Shown here: one piece after another, positions 1 through 40,180 of the stretch
Position numbering within the stretch: the stretch's first letter is position 1
How the letters are laid out: each line of letters begins with the position of its first letter
Source of the DNA: an uncultured bacterium
GTDB lineage: Bacteria; Patescibacteriota; Minisyncoccia; Phycocordibacterales; UBA9973
Reading direction: 5' to 3'
Length of the DNA stretch: 64,000 bases
NCBI GenBank assembly: GCA_937903035.1
Contig: CALCZP010000003.1
Span: 65,156-129,155, forward strand
Made by a program: the position numbers and the translations under genes
Notes under the pieces: generated by a model
Told to the model about the DNA's origin: nothing
Database searches by the model: none
What the model saw: the letters and a program-made list of their open reading frames with translations, nothing else

Positions 1-3000
1 AGTCGATTCTCCTCCTCTTTCTTTGCTGCGGCAAATGCTGCAGATGCGCTCGGATCTTTCTTGAGGCGTTCAATAATATCATTTTTGAGTTCGACCAGTT
101 TAAGGTGTGCCTTTTGTTCCACTTCTTTACTATTTGCGAGTCGAGATTCCATACCAGAACGTTGGTCTGGGGTAAGGTTTGTGTTTTGGAGTTGCTGCTC
201 CATTTGTTTTTGGTATTCTTGTTGTTGTTTGATGACTGCTTGTTGCGGAGCATTTTTAATTTCTGGTTCTTCATCGATTTTATCTTGCCATTTTTCTGAA
301 GCTGCTTTCTGAGCCTTAGTATCTCGATATGTACTCCATGTTGAGCCTGCACTACCATCAGATACCGCACTAAAGTCGAGTTTTGCATCATTTTTCTTCT
401 GACGTGCTTCAACACGTGCCTTGTCGATCTTTTGAATACCACCTGCTTTGTCTTGTCCTACACCGAGCTTCTTGGAAAACTTGTCGCTCATAGAAATACC
501 CAGATCTTTGCCGGCAGTATCCATAGTCTTGTTGAAAGTACCACCAAGTGTTGCTTCCTTGCCATTGATCTTGATACCGAGGCCTAGGTTTCGAGCATCA
601 AATGATCCTGTCTGACTTTTGTTGTAAAAGTTATTGAGCTGTCTGTTGAAGAATCCGTTGTTCGCATTTGCTGCCCAGCGATCAGCATTGGTCTTGCCAT
701 CCTTGCCTTTGATTGAGCCGATGGCAGTCATTCCTCTCCCTATAACATTTCGTCCAAGGAGTGCTGCCCCGCCTGCTGCAATACCTACGCCGCCACCAAC
801 GATACCGCCAACACCTCCAACAAAGCCATTTACGCCATTTTGAACTGCATTACCAATCTTGCCGCCATATTCCTTGGCAATACCTGCTGCCTGTTTGATG
901 AGGGTATAGATAATGAGCATTGGGATTGTGATGTAGAGTACATTTTCAAAAAATGAGTGATCGCTTCTGGTGAGGCCAAACTCATTGAGAAAGTCTGTCT
1001 GCAAGAATGAATACACAATATAGAGAAAGAAAATAAAGATTGGCGCAAGCATTGCATAGCTTGTGAGTTCCTTGACCCAGCTATCCCATGTGAGCTCCCT
1101 GATACCACTAATCAGTGGGAGTTTGCCTCGTGAGAGAAATGCAAATGGTGAGAATATCATACAAATATAGAGCCCGACGACACGCCCGAGGAACATAAAT
1201 GATACCCCCCAGAACATGAGCGCTATGGCAAACATGATCGCAGCACCAATGAGTGTGACAATAATGAAGTATCCCGCGTATTCGCTTGATGACAGACTCA
1301 TGTTGTTACCACTCTCCAAACTTCCTGTATTAATAGTGCCATTTGAAGCACTTGTTGAGGCGCCAAAACTTGTTGCAGTTCCTGCTGATTTGTCAGTGGT
1401 ACTTGCAGTTGTTTCTGTTCCAGATGATGAGAGTGTTGAAGAGCTCAGAATGGTTTGAGGATTAAACGATGACACGATCTTTTCAGACAGTGGCCAGTAT
1501 CCTCCTATTCCTCTCTTGTACTCAACTTTTCCTGTCGTTGGATCTGGTGAACAGTCCTTGGTACTACAGACACCGAGCTGGTTGTAGAACACTCGTGCTA
1601 CTACGTTTGAAAGGTCAATCACCACTCGTGTACCAAAGAGACTAAAGTTGATGATGAGTGCATTGATGACGAGTGTCGGTACGACCTTCTTCATACTGAT
1701 ACCTCCTATGCTAAATACCGTCGAAAATCCGGTCCACACAAGGATAATAATGAAGAATATGTTGGCAATATCACGTACGAGCTGCCAGCCAGTGTTGACG
1801 AATGCAAACCGATATGACTCATCACTCACTGAGTACCCGATAAAGAAGTCAAATAGATAGCCAAAAAGTGCTGCGATCCAGCTGATCGGTTTAAAAATAA
1901 GTCCGTAGATAATCTGTGCTACACAGCCAAGAACACTACCACTAACGATCCCGCATTCAGGAAGTCCACCGTTTGCATCTTGTTTGATAACTTCTGTAAC
2001 ACCCGCAGCAGTTTGTCCTGCATCATTCAATGCTGCAGCATAGTTGGGTGGTATTTTGTACGTGACAGTTTCTCCTATTTTAAAGTAACGATTATCATCT
2101 TTTTGCAACATGTACGCATCGTTTATACATCCCGTTTTGCAGCCAATTTGTTTCAAGCCATCTGGTTGACCAGTAGTTGAAGGATAAATAGTTTGATAAT
2201 AGTAGTCATTATTTGTATTTGGGTTATATACATAAAATTCACCAGAAGGAGTTTTTTCACCACCTATATTTGTTGAAGTATCAGTTATTTGTCTTGATGG
2301 CCAGTTTACGTTACTAGTTAGACCGGCAGAGTCACTTCCAAGTTTTTGATCCCAATAAAGCGTATCTCCTTTGTACCAAAGATCAACTTTTATTTCAGAA
2401 CCATATTTAATAGGGGTTGTAGGTTTAAAAGTTGTTCGTATTTGCTGTTTCCCTATAACTTCTTGTTTACTATTACCAAAAAAAATTCCTGATGCATCGT
2501 ATTTTTGAAAATAGAAAAATTTTGATTGTTCAGCTGCCGCACCAATTGTTGCAGTTTTATCCCAAAGTTTCTCTGTCTTAATAGTTTGATACTCAGTGTG
2601 TGCCTTACCATCTTTGTCAGTATATTGAATCCTTACGATGTAAGGATCAGAACTTTCATTATGTACATAACTATAAAACCACGCGCTTGGCTCAAGAGGA
2701 GTTCTATTTTTAGCAGCACTAACTCCTTTCCACCATCCATAAAGATTTTTATCTCCGTCCATGACAAGCCATGGTAGAAAATTGACCTCAATAATCCCTC
2801 CAGGATCCGTAGTTGCATTCATCTTTGCCTGAATTGCAGGTGAACCATCAGTGCCATTTATAAAACCACTTGATTGAGCAGTACTATCTAAAGTACAAAA
2901 AAGTGTTTTGAAATAGTAAAGTCGATCTTCTTTTGTAACATTTCCGCAAGGAGAAGAATCTTCTGGTTTTACTTGTGCAAATAAATTTGTTCTTACTGTA

Positions 3001-3098
3001 AAAAAGGTAAGTGAGAAAAGTAAACAAAAAACTATCGTTTTAGATAAACGTTTAAGAGAGAGTGTAATACGAAAAAATACGCGTGCGTGCACTGACAA
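1..3098 (-). CDS. Large polytopic membrane protein (>1030 aa, 3' end beyond window start): signal peptide, ~330-aa Cys-containing extracellular domain, multi-TM core, Gly-rich and coiled-coil C-terminus; VirB6/TrbL-like architecture
   Basis: One minus-strand frame is open from the window edge to 3098; no M-to-stop ORF is in the track because it is truncated. A spot translation at 1501-1562 gives TKDCSPDPTTGKVEYKRGIGG. An in-frame TGA lies at 3105-3107. The first in-frame ATG is at 2822, but upstream of it a signal-peptide-like sequence (KRLSKTIVFCLLFSLTFFTV...AQV) is only reachable from TTG(3098) or GTG(3092). Confidence 0.5.
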   Translation of the reverse strand, partial: MSVHARVFFRITLSLKRLSKTIVFCLLFSLTFFTVRTNLFAQVKPEDSSPCGNVTKEDRLYYFKTLFCTLDSTAQSSGFINGTDGSPAIQAKMNATTDPGGIIEVNFLPWLVMDGDKNLYGWWKGVSAAKNRTPLEPSAWFYSYVHNESSDPYIVRIQYTDKDGKAHTEYQTIKTEKLWDKTATIGAAAEQSKFFYFQKYDASGIFFGNSKQEVIGKQQIRTTFKPTTPIKYGSEIKVDLWYKGDTLYWDQKLGSDSAGLTSNVNWPSRQITDTSTNIGGEKTPSGEFYVYNPNTNNDYYYQTIYPSTTGQPDGLKQIGCKTGCINDAYMLQKDDNRYFKIGETVTYKIPPNYAAALNDAGQTAAGVTEVIKQDANGGLPECGIVSGSVLGCVAQIIYGLIFKPISWIAALFGYLFDFFIGYSVSDESYRFAFVNTGWQLVRDIANIFFIIILVWTGFSTVFSIGGISMKKVVPTLVINALIINFSLFGTRVVIDLSNVVARVFYNQLGVCSTKDCSPDPTTGKVEYKRGIGGYWPLSEKIVSSFNPQTILSSSTLSSSGTETTASTTDKSAGTATSFGASTSASNGTINTGSLESGNNMSLSSSEYAGYFIIVTLIGAAIMFAIALMFWGVSFMFLGRVVGLYICMIFSPFAFLSRGKLPLISGIRELTWDSWVKELTSYAMLAPIFIFFLYIVYSFLQTDFLNEFGLTRSDHSFFENVLYITIPMLIIYTLIKQAAGIAKEYGGKIGNAVQNGVNGFVGGVGGIVGGGVGIAAGGAALLGRNVIGRGMTAIGSIKGKDGKTNADRWAANANNGFFNRQLNNFYNKSQTGSFDARNLGLGIKINGKEATLGGTFNKTMDTAGKDLGISMSDKFSKKLGVGQDKAGGIQKIDKARVEARQKKNDAKLDFSAVSDGSAGSTWSTYRDTKAQKAASEKWQDKIDEEPEIKNAPQQAVIKQQQEYQKQMEQQLQNTNLTPDQRSGMESRLANSKEVEQKAHLKLVELKNDIIERLKKDPSASAAFAAAKKEEENR

Positions 3099-3124
3099 AT
3101 TGTATCATTTTTGGAGAGCGCAAA

Positions 3125-4042
3125 CTACCAGAGATTGAGACGAAGTGAATCTTCAATGATGAAATCTGCCGGTGCAGCAAAGCCATTACTATTACAGCTG
3201 TATCCGTCTCGAGAGCTACCATGAAAATGGAACCATCCATCAGAACTACGACATGCGTTAAGTCGTGTTGGAAGTGGTGTGAAGAAATAGCGAAGCATGT
3301 CCCCTGCTTCATGCCAAAATGGTGTTGCTACTTTGACCTTAAGCTCTGGCTGGGTAAAGATTGGAGCTTTGGTCTGACACCAGGCAGTGAGCTCGGTTGC
3401 TCGCTTGACTGTGTAGTTGTACTCATCAAAGTTATCGCGCTCTTGGTTTGCGTCAGCGCTGTTGTGGAGTCGTGAGGCAATGCGCTCAAACCGTGCACGG
3501 AGTCTATCGAGATCTGCACGTTCTTGGTCAGTAAAAGCAATATTTGTGTCTGCTTCGCTACAGCCTGCCCCAAGCGTTGTTGGTGTTGTTCCAGATCCTC
3601 CTGTCCCTGGGTTGCTCGCGGTCCCGGATGTTGTTGTAGTGGTTGTTCCTCCACCACTAGAGGTGCCACTACCGGGCATACCTCCGATACTAATACCTCC
3701 AGAGAGGTTACTATCCCCAAGAGGAGTAATCGTATCACTCGTAAAGTTGCTAGTGAGTACTTGTCCCCCACCTGTATTTATATTGTCACCAAATGACCCA
3801 TCACTATTCATAGGAGTACTCGTAGTTGAGCTAGTAGTATCAGTAAAGTCTGATGAGAGTTCACCATTTGCACCTGTTTGTCTAGTGCCTTTGCCGCCAA
3901 GTCCGATAAATTCTCGGAATGTTGGGGCTGTTCTACCGTTTTGCACAGCAATCTTGCGACTTCGCTGCCACAATACTCCCACAGTTGCGAGTATGAGGAG
4001 TATGAGAGCAATGATACTAATGATGACTCCGCGCTTTGTCAT
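3125..4042 (-). CDS. Hypothetical membrane-anchored protein (N-terminal TM, Gly/Thr/Ser-rich linker, C-terminal globular domain)
   Basis: 305-aa ORF; TM helix IISIIALILLILATVGVL; GTS-rich low complexity (TSSGGGTTTTTTSGT); tight operon spacing to neighbours. Confidence 0.55.
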   Translation of the reverse strand: MTKRGVIISIIALILLILATVGVLWQRSRKIAVQNGRTAPTFREFIGLGGKGTRQTGANGELSSDFTDTTSSTTSTPMNSDGSFGDNINTGGGQVLTSNFTSDTITPLGDSNLSGGISIGGMPGSGTSSGGGTTTTTTSGTASNPGTGGSGTTPTTLGAGCSEADTNIAFTDQERADLDRLRARFERIASRLHNSADANQERDNFDEYNYTVKRATELTAWCQTKAPIFTQPELKVKVATPFWHEAGDMLRYFFTPLPTRLNACRSSDGWFHFHGSSRDGYSCNSNGFAAPADFIIEDSLRLNLW

Positions 4043-4044
4043 GG

Positions 4045-6366
4045 TTATATAGTACTATAGAAATAATCTTTTGCGGCTTTTGACTTCTGTATATCTGGAT
4101 TTGGAGTGTTGTCATCAGTCTGCCTATCGCGTTTGTTGTCCGCATTAACGTCATCAGGATTGATCTTGTTGTTGTTGATGATGTATGCCTGATTGATACA
4201 TGCGAGATCTACTGGAGTACCATTTGCTGCTTGTTCTGCAATATAGCGAGCTTTTGCTGCGGCAACGATTCGGTTTACTTCTTTACGGAGATCTTCGAGT
4301 TCGCGAATTGCGCGGCGCGCGTCCTCCTCATTTGCTTCATACTGGGTAAGTGTGTCTGGCATGTTTTGGCTATACGCAGGGAGTCGTGAGATCTGATCTG
4401 CCATATCCTCCGCATTACCAATAGCGCTCAGTTTGCCACTCTCCGTTGACTCGGATGCTTCATAGATATCGGAGATACGCTTCTTGGCGAATGCGGGCTT
4501 GTACTTGGCGACGAGTCGTTCAAATGCCCTATCAAATATATCGTACTTGCTATCATCAAATGTTTCTCGACCGTCCATTGGATAGTCTTTTGTTTTGCTC
4601 GGATCAATCTGAGTCTTGTCATAGAGTAGCGCGTTGACATGATACTCTGATTCATCACCAGAAAGTCCTGTTCCTCGTTCATCAGTCTGATATATCGCGC
4701 TGACCCATGTTTGGTAGTTGTTTACGAGACCTTCTTGCCATGTTGGGTTTGGTCCTGGATAGCAGTAGTCGAGTTTGCCAAGGGCTGGGATCACTGATTG
4801 GATTTTGTTGTGTGCGTCATATGTACGATTTAAAAAGTTGTACTGGTCAATAAGGATGGCATAGAGCATCTGTGGTCGAGTAATATCAAAGTCTCCCCCA
4901 ATACCGCTTGCGCCACTCACATTACTTGTCTTGATAGGATTGCCGTTTGAATCAAGGACAACATTGAGATCCCCTACTCCTGCATAGTCATTAATACCTG
5001 CTCGCCCACCGAGTGCCGCGAGACCCTTACTAAAGAGGTTGTTCACAAGCTTATCAAAAAATGAGCTGAGTACTTCGTTCATACTGTCGGCAAGCTCGAG
5101 TTGACTCTTTGTTGATCCAGTAACACCAGCAATTTGTTCAGCAATGATGGATCCTGGAGTTACTGTTTTGTATTTCAAACATTTTGGTTTCCCACTTGAA
5201 TTTGCAGGAGTTGGGGCATTACATGCTTTGACAAGATCGTCATATTTCTTGTTTACTCCTGATTTACACGCAGCAATTGCAGTTGTGTTTTGTACTGGGC
5301 CGGTCAGCGCACTGGTGACTGTTGTATTGGATACGACACAGGTTTGGAGCTCTTGAGTACGCTCAACACTATATTTTGCTGTACAAGAGTCTGTCGATGT
5401 AGCAGTCTCAGTCTTGACTGTCTGAGGTTTTTCCCATTCAACACATTCTTTCATATCAAGAAAGCCATTGTTCCGCTGTATCTCTGCCTGGGTTGCTGCC
5501 TGTTTTTCATCTATTTTTTGTTCTAGCTTGCTTGCTGCTGTCATCACTGCACCGATGGGATTGTTACTATCTCTCTGGGTAGTGTTGAGCCACGCATTCC
5601 ATCCTCCCTGACTAAAGTCACTCATGAATGAATTGTACGCCTTTGCTTGGGGCGTGTTCATTGTTTTATTTATGAGACCATCACTTTTACCAGTGAGTTG
5701 CTGGGTGACTGTTGATCGAAGTGCGTTTCCAAATATAGGGTTGCTCCCCTGTAGTGTTGTGAGGTATTGCTCAACCTCACGATCTTTGATGCGCTTGAGA
5801 AATGAATTCTCGTCTTGCACATAGAGCGGGTTGCCGCCAAAGCCGGTGTTTGCCCAGTTGATAGTACTCGTTGAAAGTTGTTGGAGCATTTTCTTGGCAA
5901 TGGTGTAGGCTGCCCCATCAAGACATGTTTTGGCGTTTTTGAGTGTTGCGTCTCCAACTGGAACTTCCTTACTAGCCAGGCTTGAAAGTGCCTGGGTTGC
6001 AAGACCCATAAGACCCTGAATTGCAGCGTTTTTTGCGCAGCCAATGACTGCAGCACTGGTGACACTCAGGAGACTATTTCCAAAGCTATTAGCGTTGCTG
6101 TTGCCTAGACCGTTAGTAGTACCCCCAGTTGTACCGCTACTATTTGTTGTTCCTGTTGTACCTGTCCCAGTACTTCCGGTTGTCCCTCCAGTAGTGCTAC
6201 CAGTTGTACCACCAGTGTTAGTACTTCCTGTAGTGCCAGTCCCTGTACTACCTGTACTACCGCCAGTGTTTGTTGATCCTGTAAGTCCGGGATTTGTTTG
6301 TGCACTCACTTGCACTGAGCTTGAAAGAGTGAGGATAAGTAGTACTACAAAAAATGCATTCTTCAT
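4045..6366 (-). CDS. Large secreted protein with N-terminal GT(S)-rich repeat region
   Basis: 773-aa ORF; signal peptide MKNAFFVVLLILTLSSSVQVSAQ; degenerate GSTGTGTTGST repeats; 3 nt from downstream gene. Confidence 0.6.
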   Translation of the reverse strand: MKNAFFVVLLILTLSSSVQVSAQTNPGLTGSTNTGGSTGSTGTGTTGSTNTGGTTGSTTGGTTGSTGTGTTGTTNSSGTTGGTTNGLGNSNANSFGNSLLSVTSAAVIGCAKNAAIQGLMGLATQALSSLASKEVPVGDATLKNAKTCLDGAAYTIAKKMLQQLSTSTINWANTGFGGNPLYVQDENSFLKRIKDREVEQYLTTLQGSNPIFGNALRSTVTQQLTGKSDGLINKTMNTPQAKAYNSFMSDFSQGGWNAWLNTTQRDSNNPIGAVMTAASKLEQKIDEKQAATQAEIQRNNGFLDMKECVEWEKPQTVKTETATSTDSCTAKYSVERTQELQTCVVSNTTVTSALTGPVQNTTAIAACKSGVNKKYDDLVKACNAPTPANSSGKPKCLKYKTVTPGSIIAEQIAGVTGSTKSQLELADSMNEVLSSFFDKLVNNLFSKGLAALGGRAGINDYAGVGDLNVVLDSNGNPIKTSNVSGASGIGGDFDITRPQMLYAILIDQYNFLNRTYDAHNKIQSVIPALGKLDYCYPGPNPTWQEGLVNNYQTWVSAIYQTDERGTGLSGDESEYHVNALLYDKTQIDPSKTKDYPMDGRETFDDSKYDIFDRAFERLVAKYKPAFAKKRISDIYEASESTESGKLSAIGNAEDMADQISRLPAYSQNMPDTLTQYEANEEDARRAIRELEDLRKEVNRIVAAAKARYIAEQAANGTPVDLACINQAYIINNNKINPDDVNADNKRDRQTDDNTPNPDIQKSKAAKDYFYSTI

Positions 6367-6369
6367 GTA

Positions 6370-7257
6370 TTACCGAAGTATACCGTATCTAATGAAATAT
6401 TCCTGCATCCCGAGCAGTGAAGTACCAAGTCGATCCGAATAGCTATTGTAGATAGCGATACCTGCAAGTGCTTGGGTGCTGTTATTTTCAAGCTGCATAA
6501 GATAAGTAAACGATGCAGCAATACCATAGAGGCTGTTGGCGATATCAAGATGGTATTTAGATACACCGATTGGCGCAGGGATTTTCATGAGTGCAGCAGC
6601 GTATGCTTTGTAATCGACCGCTGTTTGGGCAAGCTCAGGGAGACGACTATAGTCTTCATTTTGGAGCGCATTCATCACGACATCGATATCGGCTTGTTCG
6701 AAGTCATATGAGTTGGTGAGTTTACCAAATGCTGTTGCATATGTTTGCAGCGATGCTGACGTTGTAGGAACGCTTTTGACATCGTTGAGTGAGTATTTAA
6801 GCCCCACCTTTGCAAGATCGATAGTTGAACCAAAGCTTGCAGCTATCTGTGCAAGTGCAGCATTGTCGGTCTGATCTGACTGTCCAAATGCCGCAGAGAG
6901 TGCAAAAAGATCTCGTGCGAGCTTGTCGGTATCGTTGGTTGGATCACTTTCTTGAATACCAAGGGATTTTTTTTTCTGCTCGATGATTTCTTTATTAGGA
7001 ACACCATTGGTATACAGTACACTAGGATCAAGTCCCCAGAGTTTCTCCTCCCAGTCAGCAATACCATTACCATTGGTGTCTTGGGCAAGAGTCCCTCCTA
7101 CAGTTTTTGGTACAGGCGGTAAGGGTTTTTTGTGAAGCAATGCTCTGAACCAGGTAGTCTGTACCACAAGGAGGATTGCGGTGAGACCAATAGCGATAGA
7201 GCCGCGGATTATGAATTGTTTGCTTGGACGATTAGTATTCATATTAGCGTGATACAC
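6370..7257 (-). CDS. Hypothetical membrane-anchored protein
   Basis: 295-aa ORF with a single N-terminal TM (IAIGLTAILLVV); overlaps the upstream gene by 14 nt, operon-like. Confidence 0.5.
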   Translation of the reverse strand: MYHANMNTNRPSKQFIIRGSIAIGLTAILLVVQTTWFRALLHKKPLPPVPKTVGGTLAQDTNGNGIADWEEKLWGLDPSVLYTNGVPNKEIIEQKKKSLGIQESDPTNDTDKLARDLFALSAAFGQSDQTDNAALAQIAASFGSTIDLAKVGLKYSLNDVKSVPTTSASLQTYATAFGKLTNSYDFEQADIDVVMNALQNEDYSRLPELAQTAVDYKAYAAALMKIPAPIGVSKYHLDIANSLYGIAASFTYLMQLENNSTQALAGIAIYNSYSDRLGTSLLGMQEYFIRYGILR

Positions 7258-7606
7258 CGTAGAGTTTTACTTCAAATGCAGGAACAGGGACGCCGGTTTC
7301 TGGATTAAAACACGTTTTAGCATCAGGAATAAGGCTACGGTTTCCAAGAATCCATCCTAAACGCTTTGGAGTACCACTTTTTGTAATACGGATAAAATAA
7401 GGACCTGCTGGATAGGCTGCTACTGGGCGTATAAAAAACGGTCCATACGCAGCAGTGCAAGTAATGGTAGCACTTGAATCTGTTGGGGTAGAAATTATTG
7501 ATCCGCCAAATGGACGAGTCGGAAGGCTTATAGCGTAGGATAGTGCAGGAATAAGAAACGCTATGAGAAAAAGTGCGAGCACGATAAGTTTGTGTTTTTT
7601 CATCAC
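7244..7606 (-). CDS. Small secreted protein (signal peptide, 2 Cys)
   Basis: 120-aa ORF; signal peptide MMKKHKLIVLALFLIAFLIPALSYA; first gene of the 7606->1 minus-strand operon. Confidence 0.5.
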   Translation of the reverse strand: MMKKHKLIVLALFLIAFLIPALSYAISLPTRPFGGSIISTPTDSSATITCTAAYGPFFIRPVAAYPAGPYFIRITKSGTPKRLGWILGNRSLIPDAKTCFNPETGVPVPAFEVKLYGVSR

Positions 7607-13745: not shown

Positions 13746-13875
13746 ACGCTGAGTGTACTCATATGAGATAAAGAAATACTCAAGTGTGAAACATGAGATA
13801 TATTGTTTCATTTTGTTTTAAAACAATGAAACGACAAACAAAGTGTTGTGACACTTCGCGGAGAGGACTTGTTTT

Positions 13876-17889: not shown

Positions 17890-18804
17890 ATGGATATTTC
17901 TACTGCGAAACGGCAGTTTCTCGAATATATTGAAATTGAGAAAGGGCGCAGCCAGCTCACTGTGCGCAACTATGAGCACTATCTTGATCGAGCATTTGCT
18001 GATATGGCTATCAAGCATGCAAAAGATATCACGGAGGACAAGGTACGTGAATTTCGTCTCAAACTCAATCGTGCTCCGGGCAAGCGCGGCAAAGGCCAAG
18101 CTGCTGCAACTATGAAGAAGGCGACGCAGAACTACTATATGATCGCCCTTCGCTCATTTCTCAAATATCTGCGTAAGCGAGGTATCGATACACTCACCCC
18201 TGATGCGATTGAGCTTGCAAAGGTGGGATCACGCGATCTTGATCTTATCTCAACAGACGAGCTTCATCGTCTGCTCAAGGCTCCTGATACAACGACACCC
18301 AAAGGACTTCGAGACAAAGCGTTGCTTGAGCTTTTCTTCTCGACAGGACTTCGTCTCGCGGAGCTTTGCTCGCTCAATTCAGATCTCGATCTCTCGAGGG
18401 ATGAATTTTCCATACGCGGTAAGGGTGAAAAGGTGCGCGTGGTATTTCTCTCAGAAGATGCCAAAGCTGCTATTCGTGCATATCTCAAAGGGCGCAAGGA
18501 TATGGAGGAAGCGCTATTTGTTGATCAGGCAAAAAATGGTGCACATCGTGACGATCGTCGCCTCACTCCCCGCTCCATCGAGCGTATCGTGCGCGAATAT
18601 GCCATCAAAGCTGGTATTTCCAAGAAAGTCACGCCGCATGTGCTGCGTCACTCATTTGCAACAGATCTCCTTTCAAATGGCGCTGATATTCGTTCAGTCC
18701 AGATGATGCTCGGTCATGCCAATATTGCTACAACACAGGTCTATACACATATTACCGACAAACAACTCAGGGATGTGCATAAAAAGTTCCATAGTAAAAG
18801 GTAA
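17890..18804 (+). CDS. Tyrosine site-specific recombinase XerC/XerD family
   Basis: C-terminal HVLRHSFATDLL ... LGHANIATTQVYTH with catalytic Tyr; N-terminal SAM-like domain. Confidence 0.88.
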   Translation: MDISTAKRQFLEYIEIEKGRSQLTVRNYEHYLDRAFADMAIKHAKDITEDKVREFRLKLNRAPGKRGKGQAAATMKKATQNYYMIALRSFLKYLRKRGIDTLTPDAIELAKVGSRDLDLISTDELHRLLKAPDTTTPKGLRDKALLELFFSTGLRLAELCSLNSDLDLSRDEFSIRGKGEKVRVVFLSEDAKAAIRAYLKGRKDMEEALFVDQAKNGAHRDDRRLTPRSIERIVREYAIKAGISKKVTPHVLRHSFATDLLSNGADIRSVQMMLGHANIATTQVYTHITDKQLRDVHKKFHSKR

Positions 18805-20270: not shown

Positions 20271-20771
20271 ATGAAAACTCGTAAACAACCCTTGCCCCCA
20301 AAAGCTCTGATACCGCCAGTATTAGTACATATTTGGAATAATTTATCTTATCTTCCTTGTCCCACATCGATTGAAAGATATATTGTTTTCACGGATGCAA
20401 TTTGTCGTGTATATAGAAATTATGCAAATATGATTTTTATGACATTGTATAAACCTATCCACCATACACAACAGATTGTTGGAGGAATTGAATACGAAAT
20501 GTCTTGGATCTTATCAACAACAAATGATATTACTACTGAGTGTAAAAAACACGTCCTTAGTAGAAGGTCTAAACGTATATTATTTCGTATGAGAAATAAA
20601 AATGAGCTCATTTGGGAAAAGTTTTACAAAAAATTTTTGGAACTTAAAACCGCAAATGAAGAACTGCTCTTTATCGAACATACGGATGTTCTGGCTCAAG
20701 AAATGCCGTACACAAAGAACTTCTCGGTTATTTTGCACCACTTCCAGCGGTACTCATTTCAGCGTAACTAA
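20271..20771 (+). CDS. Hypothetical protein (AT-rich island), preceded by a 6-codon leader mini-ORF
   Basis: 166-aa ORF. Strong AGGAGG at 20239-20244 serves the mini-ORF ATG 20254 (MKKQVL), whose TGA overlaps the main ATG (ATGA). Confidence 0.45.
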   Translation: MKTRKQPLPPKALIPPVLVHIWNNLSYLPCPTSIERYIVFTDAICRVYRNYANMIFMTLYKPIHHTQQIVGGIEYEMSWILSTTNDITTECKKHVLSRRSKRILFRMRNKNELIWEKFYKKFLELKTANEELLFIEHTDVLAQEMPYTKNFSVILHHFQRYSFQRN

Positions 20772-20857
20772 CTTCCTTAACACCACCCTTCTTTATAAGG
20801 GTGGTTGTCTTTTTTTAGTTTTATGGTATTTTACCTGCAAAACTAAAACCCATTACA

Positions 20858-21088
20858 ATGAAAATGAAACAAAGCATATTGGTGAATATTCTCACCATAG
20901 TTGTAGTAGCTGGAGGCCTAATCCTCAGTGACTGGCATCCTAAAACAGGTATTTCTCTGGCCGTAGCTGGAGTGATACTCTTATTCTCATATAGAGGATA
21001 TCTTTTGCTCAAAAAGACCAAAAACACACCTTTTGTTCTGCACGACGAAGAGTGGCCCGAACATCATTCTGATCATGCTATTATGTAA
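20858..21088 (+). CDS. Small two-TM membrane protein
   Basis: 76-aa ORF with two hydrophobic helices. Confidence 0.4.
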   Translation: MKMKQSILVNILTIVVVAGGLILSDWHPKTGISLAVAGVILLFSYRGYLLLKKTKNTPFVLHDEEWPEHHSDHAIM

Positions 21089-22627: not shown

Positions 22628-22645
22628 TTATATCGGTATTTATTG

Positions 22646-22717
22646 TGCACCTACCAGGACTCGAACCCAGAATAACGGTTCCGAAGACCGCTGTGATATC
22701 CATTTCACCATAGGTGC
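22646..22717 (-). tRNA. tRNA-Arg (anticodon TCG)
   Basis: Manual fold: acceptor GCACCTA/TAGGTGC, D-stem GTGA/TCAC, anticodon stem GCGGT/ACCGT with loop CTTCGGA, T-loop TTCGAGT. Confidence 0.75.
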
Positions 22718-22824
22718 GCTTGTAATACCATCGACTATACCACTGAATTGACAGAATATAAAGGGATAGTGATTGCAAAATACCGATTGATGGGTATAAT
22801 TATCAGCGCACCTTTTCACAACTT

Positions 22825-22895
22825 GCGGGTATGGTTTAGTGGTAGAATGCGTCCTTGCCAAGGACGAGACCAGGGTTCGATTCCCTGTACCCGCA
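22825..22895 (+). tRNA. tRNA-Gly (anticodon GCC)
   Basis: Acceptor GCGGGTA/TACCCGC, anticodon stem CGTCC/GGACG with loop TTGCCAA, T-arm CAGGG-TTCGATT-CCCTG. Confidence 0.85.
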
Positions 22896-22901
22896 CAACG
22901 T

Positions 22902-22927
22902 AAAAATCCCGAGCAATCGGGATTTTT
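22902..22927 (+). terminator. Terminator after tRNA-Gly
   Basis: AAAAATCCCGAGCAATCGGGATTTTT. Confidence 0.6.
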
Positions 22928-23038
22928 ACGTTGGTAGTGTTCGGACATACTTTTGTTCTTGATACAAGGACAATTTGGACAAAACTGTCTATTAGTGCGA
23001 AAGACATGTTCAAAAAGCTCATTTTTTGACAAAAGTGT

Positions 23039-23069
23039 GGATAAAGGTGTGGGATAAAGGGATAAAGGA
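23039..23069 (+). repeat. Three tandem GGATAAAGG direct repeats upstream of yraN
   Basis: GTGGATAAAGGTGTGGGATAAAGGGATAAAGGAC read directly. Confidence 0.5.
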
Positions 23070-23148
23070 CGACTGATAGATGGCTTTTAACATGTCTATT
23101 TGCTAAAATATCCTTAGTACTCAACAAATTCTGTCAACTAGTGTTATA

Positions 23149-23523
23149 TTGTTTCACGTGAAACACTTTACTTCAAAAACGCAACAAATAGGTCAAGAAG
23201 GAGAAGACCAGGCTCAGATGTTTCTCATGAAACAAGGATTTAGCATTGTTGAACGCAATGTAGCCAACAAGTACGGTGAAATCGATATTATTGCCAAAAA
23301 GAATGAAATTCACTACTTTTTTGAAGTAAAAGCTGGTATGCAGGGAAGCTGGTTTAATCCAGCTGAAAATCTCAGTAAAGCAAAGCTTCGAAAATTTATC
23401 ATCTCTGTTGAGCACTATTGTCTCACGTGTAACATTAGGGAATATCGAGTACAGGGGATTATTGTGCTTTTGCCGCGAGGAGAAAGTGGGGAAGTGAATG
23501 TAGAGATGATTGATCTGATCTGA
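23149..23523 (+). CDS. yraN: YraN family (UPF0102) endonuclease
   Basis: GE..A...L...G..I...N..Y...GEIDIIA...FVEVK pattern. Confidence 0.7.
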   Translation: MFHVKHFTSKTQQIGQEGEDQAQMFLMKQGFSIVERNVANKYGEIDIIAKKNEIHYFFEVKAGMQGSWFNPAENLSKAKLRKFIISVEHYCLTCNIREYRVQGIIVLLPRGESGEVNVEMIDLI

Positions 23524-23584
23524 GTCTTTATTTCTGTATCGCTTTCTGGTACTATGCTTTTGCTCTGTACAGTATGAGAAACAC

Positions 23585-23680
23585 CATATCGAGGTGTAGT
23601 ATATACGGCAGTCCACGGGATTGTGATTTGTACGATTCTATCGAATCATCAAATCGGGAATATCCTTGTTTTGGGAAACG
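23585..23680 (+). pseudogene. Degenerate duplicate of the tRNA-Pro 5' half (D-arm and anticodon arm) split by a ~48-nt insertion; no T-arm or acceptor 3' strand
   Basis: GAGGTGTAGTATATACGGCAGT vs GGGGTGTAGTATATCGGTAGT and CCTTGTTTTGGGAAACG vs ACTTGTTTTGGGAACAAG of the intact gene 120 nt downstream. Confidence 0.45.
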
Positions 23681-23712
23681 CTTGTCGTATATGGCTTAAA
23701 AAGGAAATATCA

Positions 23713-23786
23713 CGGGGTGTAGTATATCGGTAGTATACTTGTTTTGGGAACAAGAGGGCAGGGTTCGATTCCCTGCACCCCGACCA
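23713..23786 (+). tRNA. tRNA-Pro (anticodon TGG), CCA encoded
   Basis: Acceptor CGGGGTG/CACCCCG, anticodon stem CTTGT/ACAAG with loop TTTGGGA, T-arm GGTTCGATTCC, 3' ACCA. Confidence 0.8.
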
Positions 23787-23820
23787 TGATCGCGAAAGCG
23801 GTCACAATAGGAAAACCACG

Positions 23821-23891
23821 CGGGATTAGTTTATCGGTAAAACATCAGTTTTCCAAACTGAGGTGAAGGGTTCGACTCCCTTATCCCGCAC
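23821..23891 (+). tRNA. tRNA-Gly (anticodon TCC)
   Basis: Acceptor GCGGGAT/ATCCCGC, anticodon stem TCAGT/ACTGA with loop TTTCCAA, T-loop GGTTCGACTCC. Confidence 0.85.
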
Positions 23892-25121: not shown

Positions 25122-25511
25122 TTATGCAGCAAATACCTGCTTGAATTTTGCATGATCTTTCATGCAGAGGATACCTTCTGGTGTGATGTCTGGGTTGCCA
25201 CCGATGTGTACCATTGATAGTTCTAATACACGTTTTTTAACAGCACTTTGAATCAATGGAATCACTTCAACGTTTGTGTTTTCATTAAATACCAGAAATG
25301 CTGGCTTTTTTGCTTTCACTTTTTCAGCAATTTCGTGTGGTTTTGCACCAGCATGAATGAAGGTTAATACTACACCATTATTTTTTTTCTCAGTGCCAAG
25401 ATACAAATCTTTAAGAAACTTTTCAAGGCTTGGAGCTGTCTTTGTACAGCATCCTGAAACAAACAGAATCGTCTTTTTTGTTGACATAGTAGAAAGAGTT
25501 TTGATTTCCAA
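25122..25511 (-). CDS. Hypothetical protein (CC motif) co-transcribed with the histidine kinase and response regulator
   Basis: 129-aa ORF; possible start at MSTKK (25487); no family recognised. Confidence 0.4.
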   Translation of the reverse strand: MEIKTLSTMSTKKTILFVSGCCTKTAPSLEKFLKDLYLGTEKKNNGVVLTFIHAGAKPHEIAEKVKAKKPAFLVFNENTNVEVIPLIQSAVKKRVLELSMVHIGGNPDITPEGILCMKDHAKFKQVFAA

Positions 25512-25534
25512 AAATAGTACTCCATTTGCTCAAA

Positions 25535-25562
25535 AAGTCAAATCCCCGCCAGAAGCGGGGAA
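25535..25562 (-). terminator. Terminator hairpin, copy 1 of the repeated 21-mer AATCCCCGCCAGAAGCGGGGA
   Basis: CCCCGCCAGAAGCGGGG stem-loop immediately after the ATPase stop; identical 21-mer at 31337-31358. Confidence 0.6.
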
Positions 25563-25566
25563 ATGA

Positions 25567-28338
25567 TTATGCAGTAGTCTGTGTATAGCGAGCCATGATT
25601 TCGGACTCGACTTCTTCGCGGGGTCTGCCGAACTTGAGATAGGAGAGCTCCTTGAGTTTATCAGCAAGATCAATGTTGCCCTTGGGAGGAAATGGAGTCT
25701 TTGAGTTGAATGGCTTTGCAGGTACGCCATTTACGAGCATTTTGACATAGCAGTTGAGGTTCTCGAGCTTGAGTACATCAGATGGGGTAAAGGTCGGTGC
25801 AAATGTCTTGGCAAAGATTTCTGCATTCTCTGGTGATACACGGTGTACGACCATCGTACCAACGTTACCAAATACAGCATTCTTGATATTGTCATCAAGC
25901 TGCTCAACATACTGGTGGGCAACGGTGAGGCCTAGACGGTACTTGCGGGCTTCAGAGAGAATGACTTCAATTGAATCAGTCGTAATGTTCTGGAACTCAT
26001 CGATGTAAAGGTAAAAATCATTGACTTTTTCTTTGCCAACAATATCAACACGAGAGAGTGCTGCCATGGTAATCTTGCCGACCAAGAGGAGGCCGATAAG
26101 GTGTGAGTTAATATCGCCGAGTCGACCCTTTGAGAGATTCACAAGGAGAATCTTTTTCTTGTCCATGATGTCACGGAAGTTGAGGACGCTTTTCTCCTGT
26201 GCAATCACCGGACGCATGATGTCGTTTGAAATAAAGACATCAAACTTGTTAGTGATGTAGGGGACGAAGTTTGCAAGTGCGCTCTCGCCGGTTGTTTTCT
26301 CTGCGCCTTCCCAGAATTGCTTGATGATCGGATTCTTGCACTTGGAGAGCTTGAGGGTACGGAATGCTTTGTCAGAAAGGACGCGGCCAATCTCAAGGAG
26401 CGTCATCCCACTCTCAGGGTCTTCCATGACGAGTCCTGCGGCGTTGCGGAAGTATTGCTCAAACATCGGACCACCAGCAACTTTCATATCAAAGAGCTTG
26501 TTGAAGATAGCGAGGAGTTCGTTGATGACGAAAATCTTTTGCTCAGGAAAACGCACATCGTACTCGAGCATATTGAGTCCCATGGGGCGTGCAGTGTATG
26601 CAGGATCAAAATAAATCACATCATCGATACGCTCGGGAGGGATGTTGGCGAGGATATGTTCAATGTCAGTACCATGTGGATCAATGAAGCAGACACCGTC
26701 ACCGTTTTTGATGTCCTGGATGATCATGTTCTTGAGAAAGACCGTCTTACCGGTACCGGTCTGTCCGATCACATAGGTGTGACGCACCCGATCTTCACGC
26801 CCAAAAAATACCTCACGCTCAGTACCACGATAGTTGTTGGTGCCAAGGCTAATACCGCTTGCTTCCATAGTGGCTGGAGCAGGGGCTTGTGCACCGGATG
26901 CTTCTTTCAGTTCACTTGCAACGACGAGACCTACCGGGAAGTGAAAGAGTGTTGCAAGTTCGTCGATGTTGAGTGAGAGTTGTTGGTTCTCATTCATACT
27001 ACGGAAGCTAAAGTCTCTCGCAAGTTGATTGATGTGTGATGCTGCTACATCGTGCCAGACGATACTATTTGAGCCGACAAGGGTGAACTGTTGAAATGAT
27101 GATTTGATGGTGTTGAGTACCATTTGTGCACGAGCAAGTGTTGCCCCAGTAGCGATAAGTCTAATACCTGCAGAAATGCTCTGACTACTGGTTTTCTTTT
27201 GTGCAAGCTCAATACCTCGACTATCAATTGGTTTATTTTCTTTATCTTCTTTGGGTTTTTCAAAAAAAGATAAGAGTCCTTTGCCGAGGCCTGAGACGAT
27301 ACCACGAGTCGCTTCTTCGTAGAGATCTTTTACGGTTTCTCCTCCCTTCTGTGCACCATCAATTACTGACTGATAGAGCTTGTTGTTGGTTGTTGTGTCG
27401 CTAGTGATGATTACTTGTATCGCTGCACCTTCACCATCTGCTTCAAGTTTGGATAGAGAGCTTACGAGTGCAGCAAGAGGGTCATGTTCAAAGTTAGTAT
27501 CAGTATTGAGGGGAAATATTGCTGGCTCTGCAAGTTGCGCATAGCTTCCTGCAATACCAACGCTTGTCGCAGAGAAAATATTGTAGTCATCCGTAACTTC
27601 CTCAATCGCGGCACTGCCGTAGTATGCATGCACGAGTTTCTCAAAAGTCTCGATATGGATGCGGGGTACTGATGCATAGAGTGCAATGTCTCGTCCATGG
27701 TGTGACACGGCAAGTTCAAGTACGTAGTAGTCACCTTTTAATGCATCAGACGCAGAGAGCATACCAGTATAAAACTGCTTCATTGCCTGTATGAAACTCT
27801 TGAAATTTCCTTTGTCTGTATCACTTGGAGCGGGAAGTGTCACCATAAAGAGTGAGTGTTCAAGTTCTCGCGCAAGGGTACTTGCTTCTTTGAGCCCCGG
27901 GATTGCACCAATCGTGTGTAAGTATTGGACTAAGAAACGGTGAAAGTCATCAGCAAGATGTGGGTCTTTCATCGCACTTACGATATCAAGTGCATTTTTA
28001 ATACCTTTGTCGATCATGAGGGCAAAGAGCTCCTCTATTTTTTGATCATGACTTTCAGGTTTGAGCTTGAGTACAATACGTTCTGCTTCATGTGCGGGTA
28101 GTGCATGTGTTTCGTGGATGAAGTCTTTGGCCTCGGCGCGCGCGTACTCCTCGATGGTTGCATGTGCTGCAGACTCAAGGTTTGCATGTGGTCGTGTCTG
28201 GAGAATATATTCTTTGTGTGCTTCGCTTCCAATATGAGCAATTTCTTGGGAAGGGGAAGTGAACTTTTCAGTGGTACTGAGCATGTATATAGTATACGTG
28301 CTTTCGTAGATCATCACCATATGAATAACAAAAAACAC
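25567..28338 (-). CDS. Large soluble P-loop ATPase of the FtsK/HerA/VirD4 (TraG/TraD-like) superfamily with a ~470-aa unassigned N-terminal domain
   Basis: Walker A GQTGTGKT; Walker B LYIDEFQN; RKYRLGLTVAHQ motif typical of coupling-protein/HerA ATPases; no TM segments. Confidence 0.55.
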   Translation of the reverse strand: MFFVIHMVMIYESTYTIYMLSTTEKFTSPSQEIAHIGSEAHKEYILQTRPHANLESAAHATIEEYARAEAKDFIHETHALPAHEAERIVLKLKPESHDQKIEELFALMIDKGIKNALDIVSAMKDPHLADDFHRFLVQYLHTIGAIPGLKEASTLARELEHSLFMVTLPAPSDTDKGNFKSFIQAMKQFYTGMLSASDALKGDYYVLELAVSHHGRDIALYASVPRIHIETFEKLVHAYYGSAAIEEVTDDYNIFSATSVGIAGSYAQLAEPAIFPLNTDTNFEHDPLAALVSSLSKLEADGEGAAIQVIITSDTTTNNKLYQSVIDGAQKGGETVKDLYEEATRGIVSGLGKGLLSFFEKPKEDKENKPIDSRGIELAQKKTSSQSISAGIRLIATGATLARAQMVLNTIKSSFQQFTLVGSNSIVWHDVAASHINQLARDFSFRSMNENQQLSLNIDELATLFHFPVGLVVASELKEASGAQAPAPATMEASGISLGTNNYRGTEREVFFGREDRVRHTYVIGQTGTGKTVFLKNMIIQDIKNGDGVCFIDPHGTDIEHILANIPPERIDDVIYFDPAYTARPMGLNMLEYDVRFPEQKIFVINELLAIFNKLFDMKVAGGPMFEQYFRNAAGLVMEDPESGMTLLEIGRVLSDKAFRTLKLSKCKNPIIKQFWEGAEKTTGESALANFVPYITNKFDVFISNDIMRPVIAQEKSVLNFRDIMDKKKILLVNLSKGRLGDINSHLIGLLLVGKITMAALSRVDIVGKEKVNDFYLYIDEFQNITTDSIEVILSEARKYRLGLTVAHQYVEQLDDNIKNAVFGNVGTMVVHRVSPENAEIFAKTFAPTFTPSDVLKLENLNCYVKMLVNGVPAKPFNSKTPFPPKGNIDLADKLKELSYLKFGRPREEVESEIMARYTQTTA

Positions 28339-28388
28339 TCAGGATTATTACTGAGTGTTTTTATCTATAAAACGTTTGAGTAAACGGA

Positions 28389-34815: not shown

Positions 34816-36273
34816 ATGAAACAGATATCCGGTCGCGCTATCTTTCTCTCGCTTCTTTTCGTCATTCTTATTGGTGGCGCAATCAAAATTTTTGCATCCG
34901 CAAGTGAAAATGTAACTGGCTACGCATGGTCATCAAACATTGGATGGCTCAGCATGAATAACTGCCAGAATGGTACCTGTGGACCTCAGGGGTATGGTGT
35001 TTCAATGATGTCGACAGCTCCTGGTACGATCAGTGGCTACGCATGGTCATCAAACATTGGATGGGTTACGTTTAATGATACTGGATGTCCTTCAACGGTG
35101 AGTGGTTGTACTGGAGGTGCATCGATTGATTGGGCTCATCCAAATAGTGATAGTACAGTCAATCTAAAAGGGTGGGCACGCGCCTGTTCAGTATTTGCAA
35201 GCGGCTGCAGTGGCGCACTTGCTGCTGATACACGTCGAGGTGGCTGGGATGGTTTTATATCTCTTAATGGCAGTAATTGGGGAGGAAAGCTTAATCCTAC
35301 GACTGGTGTGGTGACTGGCTACGCATGGGGATCAGAGATTATTGGATGGATGTCACTGACAGGAATGCAGATAGGGATACCACCGCAGCAACCTGTTACA
35401 GTAACCCTTGCTTCTGCAGATGCGTGTATACCAGCTGGTCAAAAAGGACGTTTCACCTGGGATGTTACTCCGCATAGTGCAACAAGTAGATATAATACGG
35501 GAGGTGGTGCTGGTCCTAATATTGGTGGTTGCGATATCATTAAGGGTACTAAAGCAGATCCTATTTGTGAAAAGACTACTCGAGGTGATGGTACAGGAGG
35601 AAGTCCAAATACCTATCAATATATAGAGCACACACCAGCAGATCCTTCTACAGATGATCTATGTCCTGATGAATTTGATGTTCCAAGTACTGCATTGCTC
35701 GCAGGTGGTAGTCATAACTTTCAGTCAAATGTATTTACCACTATTGGTGGAACTACGTATTATCAAACATCGCTCACACCAGCAATGAGTGATTCAGAAC
35801 CGTATATATTGCGTTGTTATGATGTGGTCAATCAGACGCAGTATGATTCACCGCAGGTATTTGTTAGTCAGTGTCCCGCACCAACTGAGGATTTCACTAT
35901 CACTGCAACACCTTCAAGTCAAAAGCTCGTTGATGGCACAGGGATTAATCTTGGTAAAAAAGTAGCGACGTTCACTATAGCGGTAAATCCTATCAGTGGT
36001 TTTGGTGCTGCGGGAGATAGTGTGGTACTTGCAATTCAGTCATACCCAACAATGCCCCCAAGTACAACATTCAACTTTAGCTCTCCGACACTCAACTGGA
36101 ACGGATCATCGTTCGGTACTGCAACACTTACGGTGGTTATTAATGCAAATGAAGTTACCACTGCAAGTTATACACCGATTGTGATCTCTGGTACTTCAAC
36201 ACCAGGGGTGCGTACCACAAGTGTTACCGTTGGAGGTAAGGGGAAGAAGCAGACGATTTTTGAAGAAATCTAG
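34816..36273 (+). CDS. Secreted protein with three tandem GYAWSSNIGW(L/V)(S/T) repeats and Cys-rich segments
   Basis: Signal peptide ending ASA; repeats at 34918-34950 and 35035-35067 (30 nt identical) and 35316-35351. Confidence 0.6.
   Translation: MKQISGRAIFLSLLFVILIGGAIKIFASASENVTGYAWSSNIGWLSMNNCQNGTCGPQGYGVSMMSTAPGTISGYAWSSNIGWVTFNDTGCPSTVSGCTGGASIDWAHPNSDSTVNLKGWARACSVFASGCSGALAADTRRGGWDGFISLNGSNWGGKLNPTTGVVTGYAWGSEIIGWMSLTGMQIGIPPQQPVTVTLASADACIPAGQKGRFTWDVTPHSATSRYNTGGGAGPNIGGCDIIKGTKADPICEKTTRGDGTGGSPNTYQYIEHTPADPSTDDLCPDEFDVPSTALLAGGSHNFQSNVFTTIGGTTYYQTSLTPAMSDSEPYILRCYDVVNQTQYDSPQVFVSQCPAPTEDFTITATPSSQKLVDGTGINLGKKVATFTIAVNPISGFGAAGDSVVLAIQSYPTMPPSTTFNFSSPTLNWNGSSFGTATLTVVINANEVTTASYTPIVISGTSTPGVRTTSVTVGGKGKKQTIFEEI
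34918..35351 (+). repeat. Intragenic tandem repeats encoding GYAWSSNIGW motifs
   Basis: GGCTACGCATGGTCATCAAACATTGGATGG occurs twice exactly, plus a diverged third copy. Confidence 0.7.
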
Positions 36274-36293
36274 TATACTTATACATACATAGT

Positions 36294-36620: not shown

Positions 36621-36626
36621 TATTGT

Positions 36627-37799: not shown

Positions 37800-37811
37800 T
37801 ATATAGATAGT

Positions 37812-38933: not shown

Positions 38934-38937
38934 ACAT

Positions 38938-40176: not shown

Positions 40177-40180
40177 AAAA

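Follow-up and report, generated by a model that had tools for sequence, protein, structure and literature searches.

The Patescibacteria, or Candidate Phyla Radiation (CPR), make up a huge and mostly uncultured share of bacterial diversity and live attached to other cells. Their type IV secretion systems (T4SSs) resemble the conjugation machines of monoderm bacteria (Quiñonero-Coronel et al., PMC12102498, main text), and the Patescibacteria T4SS is the first to be reported as essential for the bacterium that carries it (PMC12857230, PMC12102498). According to the main text of the same survey, homologues of the VirD4-like type IV coupling protein (T4CP) occur in 2,918 of 3,035 Patescibacteria genomes (96%), only 148 of 5,713 such homologues lie near virB4, and relaxases are nearly absent (109 in 3,035 genomes); its Table S3 lists several t4cp1 and t4cp2 matches per genome, those to t4cp2 in near-tandem pairs. 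Neither VirD4 nor T4CPs are mentioned in the main text of Wang et al. 2023. The present analysis concerns the gene of a large ATPase on the minus strand of a 64,000-nucleotide stretch of DNA (referred to here as the window) from an uncultured bacterium of the Patescibacteriota (GTDB lineage Minisyncoccia; Phycocordibacterales; UBA9973; assembly GCA_937903035.1, contig CALCZP010000003.1, positions 65,156 to 129,155). The family of this ATPase, which carries the Pfam domain DUF8128 (PF26449), is very probably among the orphan T4CP homologues counted in the main text and Table S3 of the survey.

The protein appears to combine a motor of the T4CP type with an N-terminal domain whose fold is probably like that of the N-terminal domain of VirB4/TrwK, preceded by a helical 'head' that is a separate protein in sister lineages. 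One family of orphan T4CP homologues gains in this way a concrete anatomy (a head, separate or fused, an optional single transmembrane (TM) segment, a VirB4-like N-domain and a T4CP-type motor), and it behaves as a core gene in a secY-adk-map neighbourhood. That Patescibacteria carry orphan VirD4-like genes has been published before, databases list the N-domain as a domain of unknown function, and NCBI names the homologues as T4SS-related. What appears to be new, in that it was not found in the literature searched, is the joining of a VirB4-like fold in DUF8128 to a motor of the T4CP type, the partnership with the head and the fusion by which it replaces the TM anchor, and the spc-operon position and extreme conservation of the ATPase. 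The literature searched contains no mention of PF26449 or DUF8128. The homologues surveyed in PMC12102498 resemble the ATPase in phylum, in being VirD4-like and in lying almost never beside virB4; the passages searched in its main text give no account of a DUF8128/VirB4-like N-domain, of head fusion or fission, of TM and soluble forms, or of the spc-operon position. This architecture bears on the evolution of VirD4 from VirB4, and makes it a testable question whether the motor docks on a T4SS via its VirB4-like domain or is a conjugation motor domesticated for chromosome or DNA handling.

The features of the gene and its product are as follows, with residues in the numbering of the 905-amino-acid (aa) product.

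25567..28284, minus strand: ATPase gene, 905 aa, with ATG 28284 as the most likely start and stop codon TAA at 25567-25569
27880..28284, minus strand: N-terminal helical 'head', aa 1-135, with the motif KG..NAL…(N/D)P.L.D.FH..LV
26929..27879, minus strand: DUF8128 (PF26449) alpha/beta domain, aa ~136-452, from homologue annotation and predicted fold
26857..26928, minus strand: Ala/Pro-rich linker, aa 453-476, with a low predicted local distance difference test (pLDDT) score
25675..26856, minus strand: P-loop motor of the T4CP type (TrwB/VirD4/TraD-like), aa 477-870, from profile and family matches
26743..26766, minus strand: Walker A motif GQTGTGKT, aa 507-514, coordinates verified
26035-26541, minus strand: helical insertion between Walker A and Walker B, aa ~582-750, at the position of the T4CP all-alpha domain
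25987..26007, minus strand: Walker B motif YIDEFQN, aa 760-766, coordinates verified
25912..25947, minus strand: RKYRLGLTVAHQ, aa 780-791, aligning with RKAGLRVVAGLQ of TrwB

The motor domain

Pfam, NCBIfam, sequence matches in the PDB and hhalign uphold the original prediction of a soluble ATPase of the FtsK/HerA/VirD4 type. Judged from its sequence, the ATPase belongs to this assemblage, and its motor is closest to the type IV coupling proteins. A diverse family alignment (A2) supplied both the motif invariance and the family profile for hhalign, and reference sequences of TrwB and TrwK were taken from the IncW plasmid pIE321. The profile aligned with TrwB at 94.3% probability (E 1e-7, 258 columns), in an alignment spanning from before Walker A to past the RK…Q motif and including the helical insertion, as against 6.8% with TrwK/VirB4 in the P-loop region only. 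With the VirB4 of the same genome the probability was 24.7% over 323 columns, which begin at an ELAxxFHFP motif closing DUF8128 and extend across the motor.

Family models point the same way. Pfam TrwB_AAD_bind (PF10412) scored 27.7 bits against a cut-off of 20.5, over 44 residues only, and TraG-D_C fell slightly under its cut-off. Among NCBIfam models, all of which scored far under their curated cut-offs, those for TraD, VirD4-like proteins and TrbC ranked above those for VirB4, with an E-value of 1.4e-14 for TIGR03743 (TraD, 53.5 bits, curated cut-off 366) versus 8.7e-5 for TIGR00929 (VirB4). The sequence matches in the PDB were TrwB and DotL. By all these comparisons the motor is clearly closer to VirD4/TrwB than to VirB4.

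The motor shares with T4CPs (TrwB of R388, VirD4, TraD, TraG, DotL) the homologous core with Walker A GxTGTGK[ST], Walker B h-h-h-D-E and RK…Q, and it may also share a helical insertion between Walker A and B at the all-alpha-domain position. All three motifs of the original prediction are present and are invariant or nearly so across the family alignment: in Walker A, invariance is complete at G507, T509, G510, G512 and K513 and nearly complete at Q508 and T511; in Walker B, D762, E763, F764 and N766 are nearly invariant, as are R780, K781, H790 and Q791 of RKYRLGLTVAHQ, which by its alignment corresponds to the arginine/glutamine sensor region common to VirB4 and VirD4 ATPases. The insertion, of ~170 aa, aligns with TrwB in hhalign and was modelled at low confidence (pLDDT 30-50). 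No TM segment is predicted in the window ATPase, the highest Kyte-Doolittle 19-residue mean (1.54, aa 725-743) falling within the ATPase core, and the protein is predicted to be soluble, as had been proposed. In this it differs from T4CPs, which usually have two TM helices, and it further differs from the classical T4CPs in its extra N-terminal region of ~450 aa (head and DUF8128).

With HerA defence ATPases and FtsK/SpoIIIE the ATPase shares membership of the FtsK-HerA ring-translocase superfamily and weak structural and profile matches, whose scores lie below those for T4CPs and VirB4; Pfam PF01580 (FtsK/SpoIIIE), for instance, matched 22 residues at the P-loop only (16.3 bits, cut-off 24). 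Unlike FtsK/SpoIIIE, it has neither a four-TM N-domain nor a gamma domain that reads FtsK-orienting polar sequences (KOPS). Unlike HerA-nuclease/NADase systems, it has no HAS-barrel and no effector partner, and the model of its N-domain has no HerA match.

The DUF8128 domain and its likeness to VirB4

The original prediction of a novel N-terminus of ~470 aa stood insofar as the region has no characterised homologue, but residues ~136-452 correspond to a catalogued family, and their model matches the N-domain of VirB4/TrwK. Most of the 120 full-length homologues listed (62-93% identity), and TM-form relatives as well, carry a precomputed PF26449 annotation, and the domain was assigned to the window protein by way of these homologues. 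A full-length AlphaFold model of the ATPase was mediocre (pLDDT 65), and Foldseek ranked TrwK/VirB4 first for it, with an E-value of 6e-13 over ~900 aligned columns, followed by HerA (~3e-7) and TrwB (~1e-6). Residues 1-478, modelled from a more diverse alignment, gave a pLDDT of 80.6 and a predicted TM-score (pTM) of 0.75. In a Foldseek search of the PDB with this second model the top 14 matches were all TrwK/VirB4 (E 6e-6 to 1.4e-3, probability 0.99-1.00), and subsequent matches, at E >0.01, were ferredoxin-like folds without relation to it. The list contains neither TrwB nor HerA nor the VirB4 C-terminal domain on its own (4ag6), and because they are missing from it, the match is ascribed to the VirB4 N-terminal domain. 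DUF8128 would thus probably have a fold like that of the N-terminal domain of VirB4/TrwK.

In sequence, the ATPase has no match to PF03135, the Pfam family of the VirB4 N-terminal domain, and a search of PDB sequences with the N-domain returned nothing. A relationship of DUF8128 to the TrsD/TraC-like protein of the same genome was considered and rejected, the two having no sequence similarity. The layout of the ATPase is nonetheless that of VirB4/TrwK/TraC, an N-terminal alpha/beta domain followed by a motor, with VirB4 as the only match of the N-domain model among PDB chains, and its TM-anchored form is like the VirB3-VirB4 fusions. It is unlike VirB4 in that its motor sequence is nearer to T4CPs, in matching neither the VirB4 N-terminal families nor its own genome's TrsD/TraC-like protein in sequence, and in not being encoded with VirB3, VirB6 and VirB8, in a genome that has its own canonical VirB4.

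In some members (among P0163, P0177, P0203, P0152 and P0168) the linker after DUF8128 is enlarged by 100-140 aa of low complexity, rich in Ser, Thr, Asn, Glu and Lys, and one of these five proteins bears a C-terminal tail of ~200 aa rich in Gln, Pro and Tyr.

The head module and the soluble and anchored forms

What had been taken for a single long N-terminus falls into two parts, the first 135 residues forming a module of their own, which sister lineages encode as an independent gene. Relatives of ~800 aa from Wolfebacteria and the Parcubacteria group (the TM form) lack the first ~130 residues and have at their start a single hydrophobic helix and, after it, basic residues. Of 79 loci retrieved with a TM-form query, 24 have a gene of ~135 aa directly upstream on the same strand, at a median gap of -8 nt. 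A hidden Markov model of residues 1-135, from head-fused forms, matches 18 small stand-alone proteins (E 4e-20 to <1e-3) of ~116-151 aa, encoded immediately upstream of the TM-anchored ATPase in sister lineages. Head and small proteins, which are not hydrophobic, have in common the motif KG…A…NP.L.D.FHD.LV in their alignment. Because the head is a separate upstream gene next to the TM-anchored ATPase in these lineages, the window protein is, on this comparison of genes, a fusion that joins the head partner to the DUF8128-motor protein and in which the TM anchor has been lost; the split form has one TM helix.

In gene order and size only, the split form is like trwA-trwB, with a small helical protein encoded directly upstream. 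Descent of the head from TrwA, the accessory protein of R388, was tried and discarded, as there is no similarity between them. Against PDB sequences the head found no match of solved structure, the matches to AcrIIC4 at E 0.012 being probably noise from helical bias. At one locus (L158, 9971-15021) the gene of a TM-anchored DUF8128 ATPase (827 aa) overlaps by 4 nt with that of a second, TM-less one (856 aa) next downstream, and such tandem paralogues could possibly form a hetero-oligomeric pair in some lineages.

Family size and distribution

More than 650 homologues of the ATPase are found in the protein database, the best 120 of them full-length at 62-93% identity, and an alignment of 33 close homologues (A1) has a mean column identity of 72%; by these measures the open reading frame (ORF) is a genuine gene, far beyond chance. 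The N-terminal 470 aa alone, used as query, retrieved 761 cluster representatives at 50% identity. Named homologues are all from Patescibacteria (Paceibacterota, Nomurabacteria, Minisyncoccia), and the database calls them 'TraM recognition domain-containing protein' or 'type IV secretory system conjugative DNA transfer family protein'. In a scan of one genome per GTDB species, relatives were found in at least 393 species genomes, the named ones being Nomura-, Taylor-, Yonath-, Campbell-, Zambryski-, Kaiser- and Adlerbacteria. The family is vertically inherited, Paceibacteria-wide and core-gene-like. Strong full-length matches thus do exist, and to a very large family of housekeeping appearance, but this family is itself uncharacterised, where the original prediction had asked after a characterised housekeeping ATPase.

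Several TPA_asm loci from metagenome-assembled genomes (L003, L004, L021 and others) are titled 'uncultured Candidatus Saccharibacteria bacterium'. The identity of their proteins to members from Paceibacteria is 45-72%, for which reason these labels are treated as unreliable; they are probably generic or wrong. One locus (L025, 22-9034) has extra paralogues of the ATPase domain only, one of 496 aa and a partial one of 399 aa. Three zinc-ribbon proteins of ~560-580 aa (CQNCKKDF…CPEC motif) and a DnaJ-like gene are scattered among them, and map and the main DUF8128 gene come just downstream. The extra paralogues here and in the tandem locus agree with the multiple t4cp matches per genome in Table S3 of PMC12102498. 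Within the window no second ATPase paralogue was found.

Conserved genomic context

Neighbour families were clustered de novo across 79 head-fused loci. Directly upstream of the ATPase gene lies that of methionine aminopeptidase (map) in 37 of the 79; adenylate kinase (adk) is encoded upstream in 32 loci, SecY likewise (27 loci) and uL15 also (17 loci), and 36 loci have an Ndk-like gene directly downstream. In all or nearly all of these loci, ndk and the upstream genes share the strand of the ATPase gene. TM-form-query loci have the map/adk/secY/ndk pattern likewise, with dnaX downstream in 17-19, so that the usual position of the ATPase gene is secY-adk-map-[ATPase]-ndk/dnaX, at the end of the spc operon.

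Genes of type IV pili or ComFC (PilB, PilC, PilT, ComFC) are rare neighbours, found in ~1 of 80 head-fused and 2-3 of 83 TM-form-query loci; in one Wolfebacteria locus the ATPase gene adjoins comFC and a complete pilus cluster, pilM-pilO-pilB-pilT-pilC. Neither a relaxase nor Sir2, DUF4297 or NurA lies within ~7 kb of the ATPase gene in the window or recurs across ~160 related loci. The vicinity of the gene in the window is also free of any nuclease or NADase partner and of other genes of mobile elements, and no relaxase or other transfer gene could be identified among the window ORFs. PADLOC gave weak matches, confined to the ATPase core, to mad8 (48.6 bits), HerA (32.8 bits) and DndH. In contrast to T4CPs, therefore, the gene is without a relaxase and outside a T4SS locus or mobile element, and is conserved at a housekeeping level.

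[quoted passage not shown]

At the start of the window lies a candidate partner of the ATPase.

1..7606, minus strand: Patescibacteria-type T4SS locus (5' part) beside ksgA, at a distance from the ATPase gene

The part within the window, next to ksgA at 7619-8413, encodes four secreted or low-complexity proteins (119/120, 290/295, 773 and 305 aa) that bear signal or TM segments as well as low-complexity tracts rich in Gly, Thr and Ser, none of them with a Pfam match, and a multi-TM ORF of >1034 aa that runs past the window start and measures 1260 aa in full. Beyond the window the locus continues (L084, 10951-20918) with PrgI/VirB3, TraC-like/TrsD, a 604-aa VirB4-type ATPase and an NlpC/amidase cell-wall hydrolase. 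It is the Patescibacteria T4SS described in the main text of Quiñonero-Coronel et al. (PMC12102498). The locus is 18-35 kb from the ATPase gene, its near end at ~18 kb, and no coupling protein is recognisable among the genes retrieved from it.

Possible functions of the ATPase

The reading tentatively preferred here, at somewhat under an even chance, is that the ATPase is a trans-encoded VirD4-equivalent coupling ATPase of the chromosomal Patescibacteria T4SS, a system present in the same genome with no T4CP annotated in the retrieved part of its locus. By homology with TrwB, VirD4 and VirB4, the ATPase would form a hexameric ring on the cytoplasmic side of the membrane, where ATP hydrolysis would feed a polymer substrate (DNA/nucleoprotein or unfolded protein) into the channel; docking on the T4SS would be via the VirB4-like DUF8128 domain and the head, not via a TM anchor. 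A number of observations weigh against such a role. Coupling proteins are not usually conserved as highly as this ATPase, the window protein is without a membrane anchor, and the conserved context is a housekeeping one, with secY-adk-map upstream and ndk or dnaX downstream. VirB4, TrsD, PrgI or VirB6-like genes lie within 10 kb in none of 80 head-fused and one of 83 TM-form-query loci. The likeness of DUF8128 to the VirB4 N-terminal domain is drawn from predicted structure only, has TM-scores of 0.33-0.35 over the whole 478-residue query at a root-mean-square deviation of ~9 Å, and comes without a sequence signal in either the PDB sequence search or hhalign against TrwK. Finally, the main text of PMC12102498 reports that in Ca. 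Southlakia epibionticum the T4SS is essential and the T4CP homologue, which may or may not be of the DUF8128 family, is not, and its authors raised exaptation of the homologue because it is non-essential.

The gene-neighbourhood data favour instead a T4SS-independent housekeeping translocase, a T4CP-derived ring ATPase exapted for a core cellular task such as FtsK-like chromosome segregation and dimer resolution, work at the replication fork, or DNA uptake as a motor acting with ComEC and the type IV pilus. This alternative, the chief rival and almost as probable as the coupling role, draws on the position at the end of the spc operon, on dnaX downstream in the TM-form-query loci, on the extreme and near-universal conservation of the family and on the exaptation already raised in the main text of PMC12102498; the Wolfebacteria locus beside comFC and the pil cluster is in line with it, as are the type IV pilus cluster 6.5 kb off, the ComEC and the ComM-like genes of the window. 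Such pilus or ComF neighbours are, on the other hand, rare, the secY-adk-map operon position reflects expression level and not function, no FtsK gamma domain or other DNA-recognition module was found with Pfam or NCBIfam, and a VirB4-like N-domain is hard to account for outside a T4SS-like assembly. A second, highly divergent VirB4-type ATPase, powering the assembly of a secretion or pilus machine and not serving as a VirD4-type substrate receptor, would explain the two-domain layout, the first rank of TrwK/VirB4 for the full-length model, the exclusive match of the N-domain model to VirB4 and the hhalign alignment with the genome's own VirB4 from ELAxxFHFP through the motor, and its TM-anchored form would then mimic known VirB3-VirB4 fusions. 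It is clearly unlikely, since hhalign favours TrwB (94%) over VirB4 (7-25%), NCBIfam and Pfam T4CP models score above VirB4 models, DUF8128 has no sequence similarity to TrsD, and the T4SS locus of the genome already has a canonical split VirB4 (TraC-like/TrsD and the 604-aa ATPase).

The roles in conjugation and in anti-phage defence that the original prediction had entertained fared worse, and membership of a conjugative element or of a defence system is not supported. A coupling protein of an integrated conjugative or mobilisable element might be suspected from the sequence similarity to TraD, TrwB and VirD4 and from a tyrosine recombinase and a tRNA cluster within 10 kb, but this is highly improbable given the recombinase's XerC/D architecture, the normal GC content (46.1% in the gene versus 44.4% in the window), the lack of identifiable relaxase, transfer or Dtr (DNA transfer and replication) genes in the window, the scarcity of relaxases across the phylum in the published survey, and vertical conservation in at least 393 species in housekeeping contexts. 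Equally slight is the probability of a HerA/DUF87-like ATPase of an anti-phage system. Its PADLOC matches are generic to the ATPase core, and the Foldseek matches to HerA-Sir2 and HerA-DUF4297 complexes (E ~1e-6) are set against HerA scores below those of T4CPs and VirB4, the absence of an adjacent or recurrent effector such as Sir2, DUF4297 or NurA, a gene that looks monocistronic, and a core-gene-like conservation and synteny, whereas defence genes are patchily distributed. Going beyond the coupling-ATPase reading, the DUF8128 ATPases might be a third ancient branch of T4SS ATPases, with a VirB4-type N-domain and a VirD4-type motor, exapted together with the head into an essential, conjugation-independent housekeeping translocase. 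This idea is speculative and rather unlikely as it stands; if true, it would make the branch a living intermediate between VirB4 and coupling proteins, with possible roles as a replacement of FtsK or in the acquisition of DNA or nucleotides by biosynthetically poor epibionts.

Gene boundaries and transcription

The minus-strand ORF of 923 codons from which the original prediction derived its 923-aa protein is confirmed in the window, from GTG 28338 to the stop at 25567-25569, but the likely product is shorter.

25567..28338, minus strand: maximal ORF, 923 aa, from GTG 28338
28331..28362, minus strand: terminator-like hairpin of the upstream HU gene, overlapping GTG 28338; the ATPase gene is isolated transcriptionally
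25533..25561, minus strand: terminator-like hairpin with T-rich tail, directly after the ATPase stop codon (hairpin arms 25561-25543)

The true start is almost certainly ATG 28284, giving 905 aa instead of 923, because GTG 28338 falls within the HU gene's terminator hairpin (28362-28331), which the first 18 codons of the longer ORF overlap, and because the homologues have 900-905 aa; the product from 28284 aligns across 100% of its length with a homologue of 905 aa at 93% identity (P0001). A TATACT sequence resembling a -10 element lies ~9 nt 5' of this ATG (window 28285-28300), with no obvious Shine-Dalgarno sequence, and the leader of the mRNA may be very short or absent altogether. Separate transcription with a terminator at 25535-25562, as first proposed, agrees with the downstream hairpin and T-rich tail, and the gene looks monocistronic. 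The GC content of the gene is unremarkable.

Other features of the window

The DNA of the window is of housekeeping character, from a bacterium with a small genome; in gene order, NusA, inorganic pyrophosphatase, trigger factor, ClpP, RNase Y and HU precede the ATPase, followed by a 121-aa orphan, a histidine kinase without sensor, a receiver-only response regulator, four tRNAs and the CCA-adding enzyme. A downstream operon of small protein, histidine kinase and response regulator, as originally proposed, does not hold, since a terminator-like hairpin (25104-25085) separates the 121-aa ORF from the kinase, and the three genes are present in 1, 6 and 3 of ~80 related loci, respectively. The 121-aa ORF (25122-25487), found in 1 of 80 loci, has no Pfam or PADLOC match. 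HU, the 121-aa ORF, the kinase and the regulator, not being conserved in related loci, were dropped as evidence of function.

The tyrosine recombinase of XerC/D domain architecture is at 17890-18804 and the four tRNA genes (Arg-TCG, Gly-GCC, Pro-TGG and Gly-TCC) at 22645-23891, with ORFs that could not be annotated between the two (20271-21088) and within the tRNA cluster (23173-23616). No evidence of an integrated element was seen around them, element borders not having been searched for. The type IV pilus cluster (34816-46439, plus strand) comprises PilB (40197-41981) and PilC (42002-43213) together with an N-methyl pilin (44093-44650), several large proteins that match no family, and a protein of 390 aa (36627-37799) with matches to Hint/intein-like domains. 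A protein with the ComEC 'Competence' domain (51891-53348) and a metallo-beta-lactamase protein (54047-54922) are encoded by separate genes, between which a superoxide dismutase gene sits on the opposite strand. A ComM/YifB-like Mg-chelatase ATPase is encoded at 12240-13811, and the secY-adk genes of the window lie at 61.3-63.3 kb.

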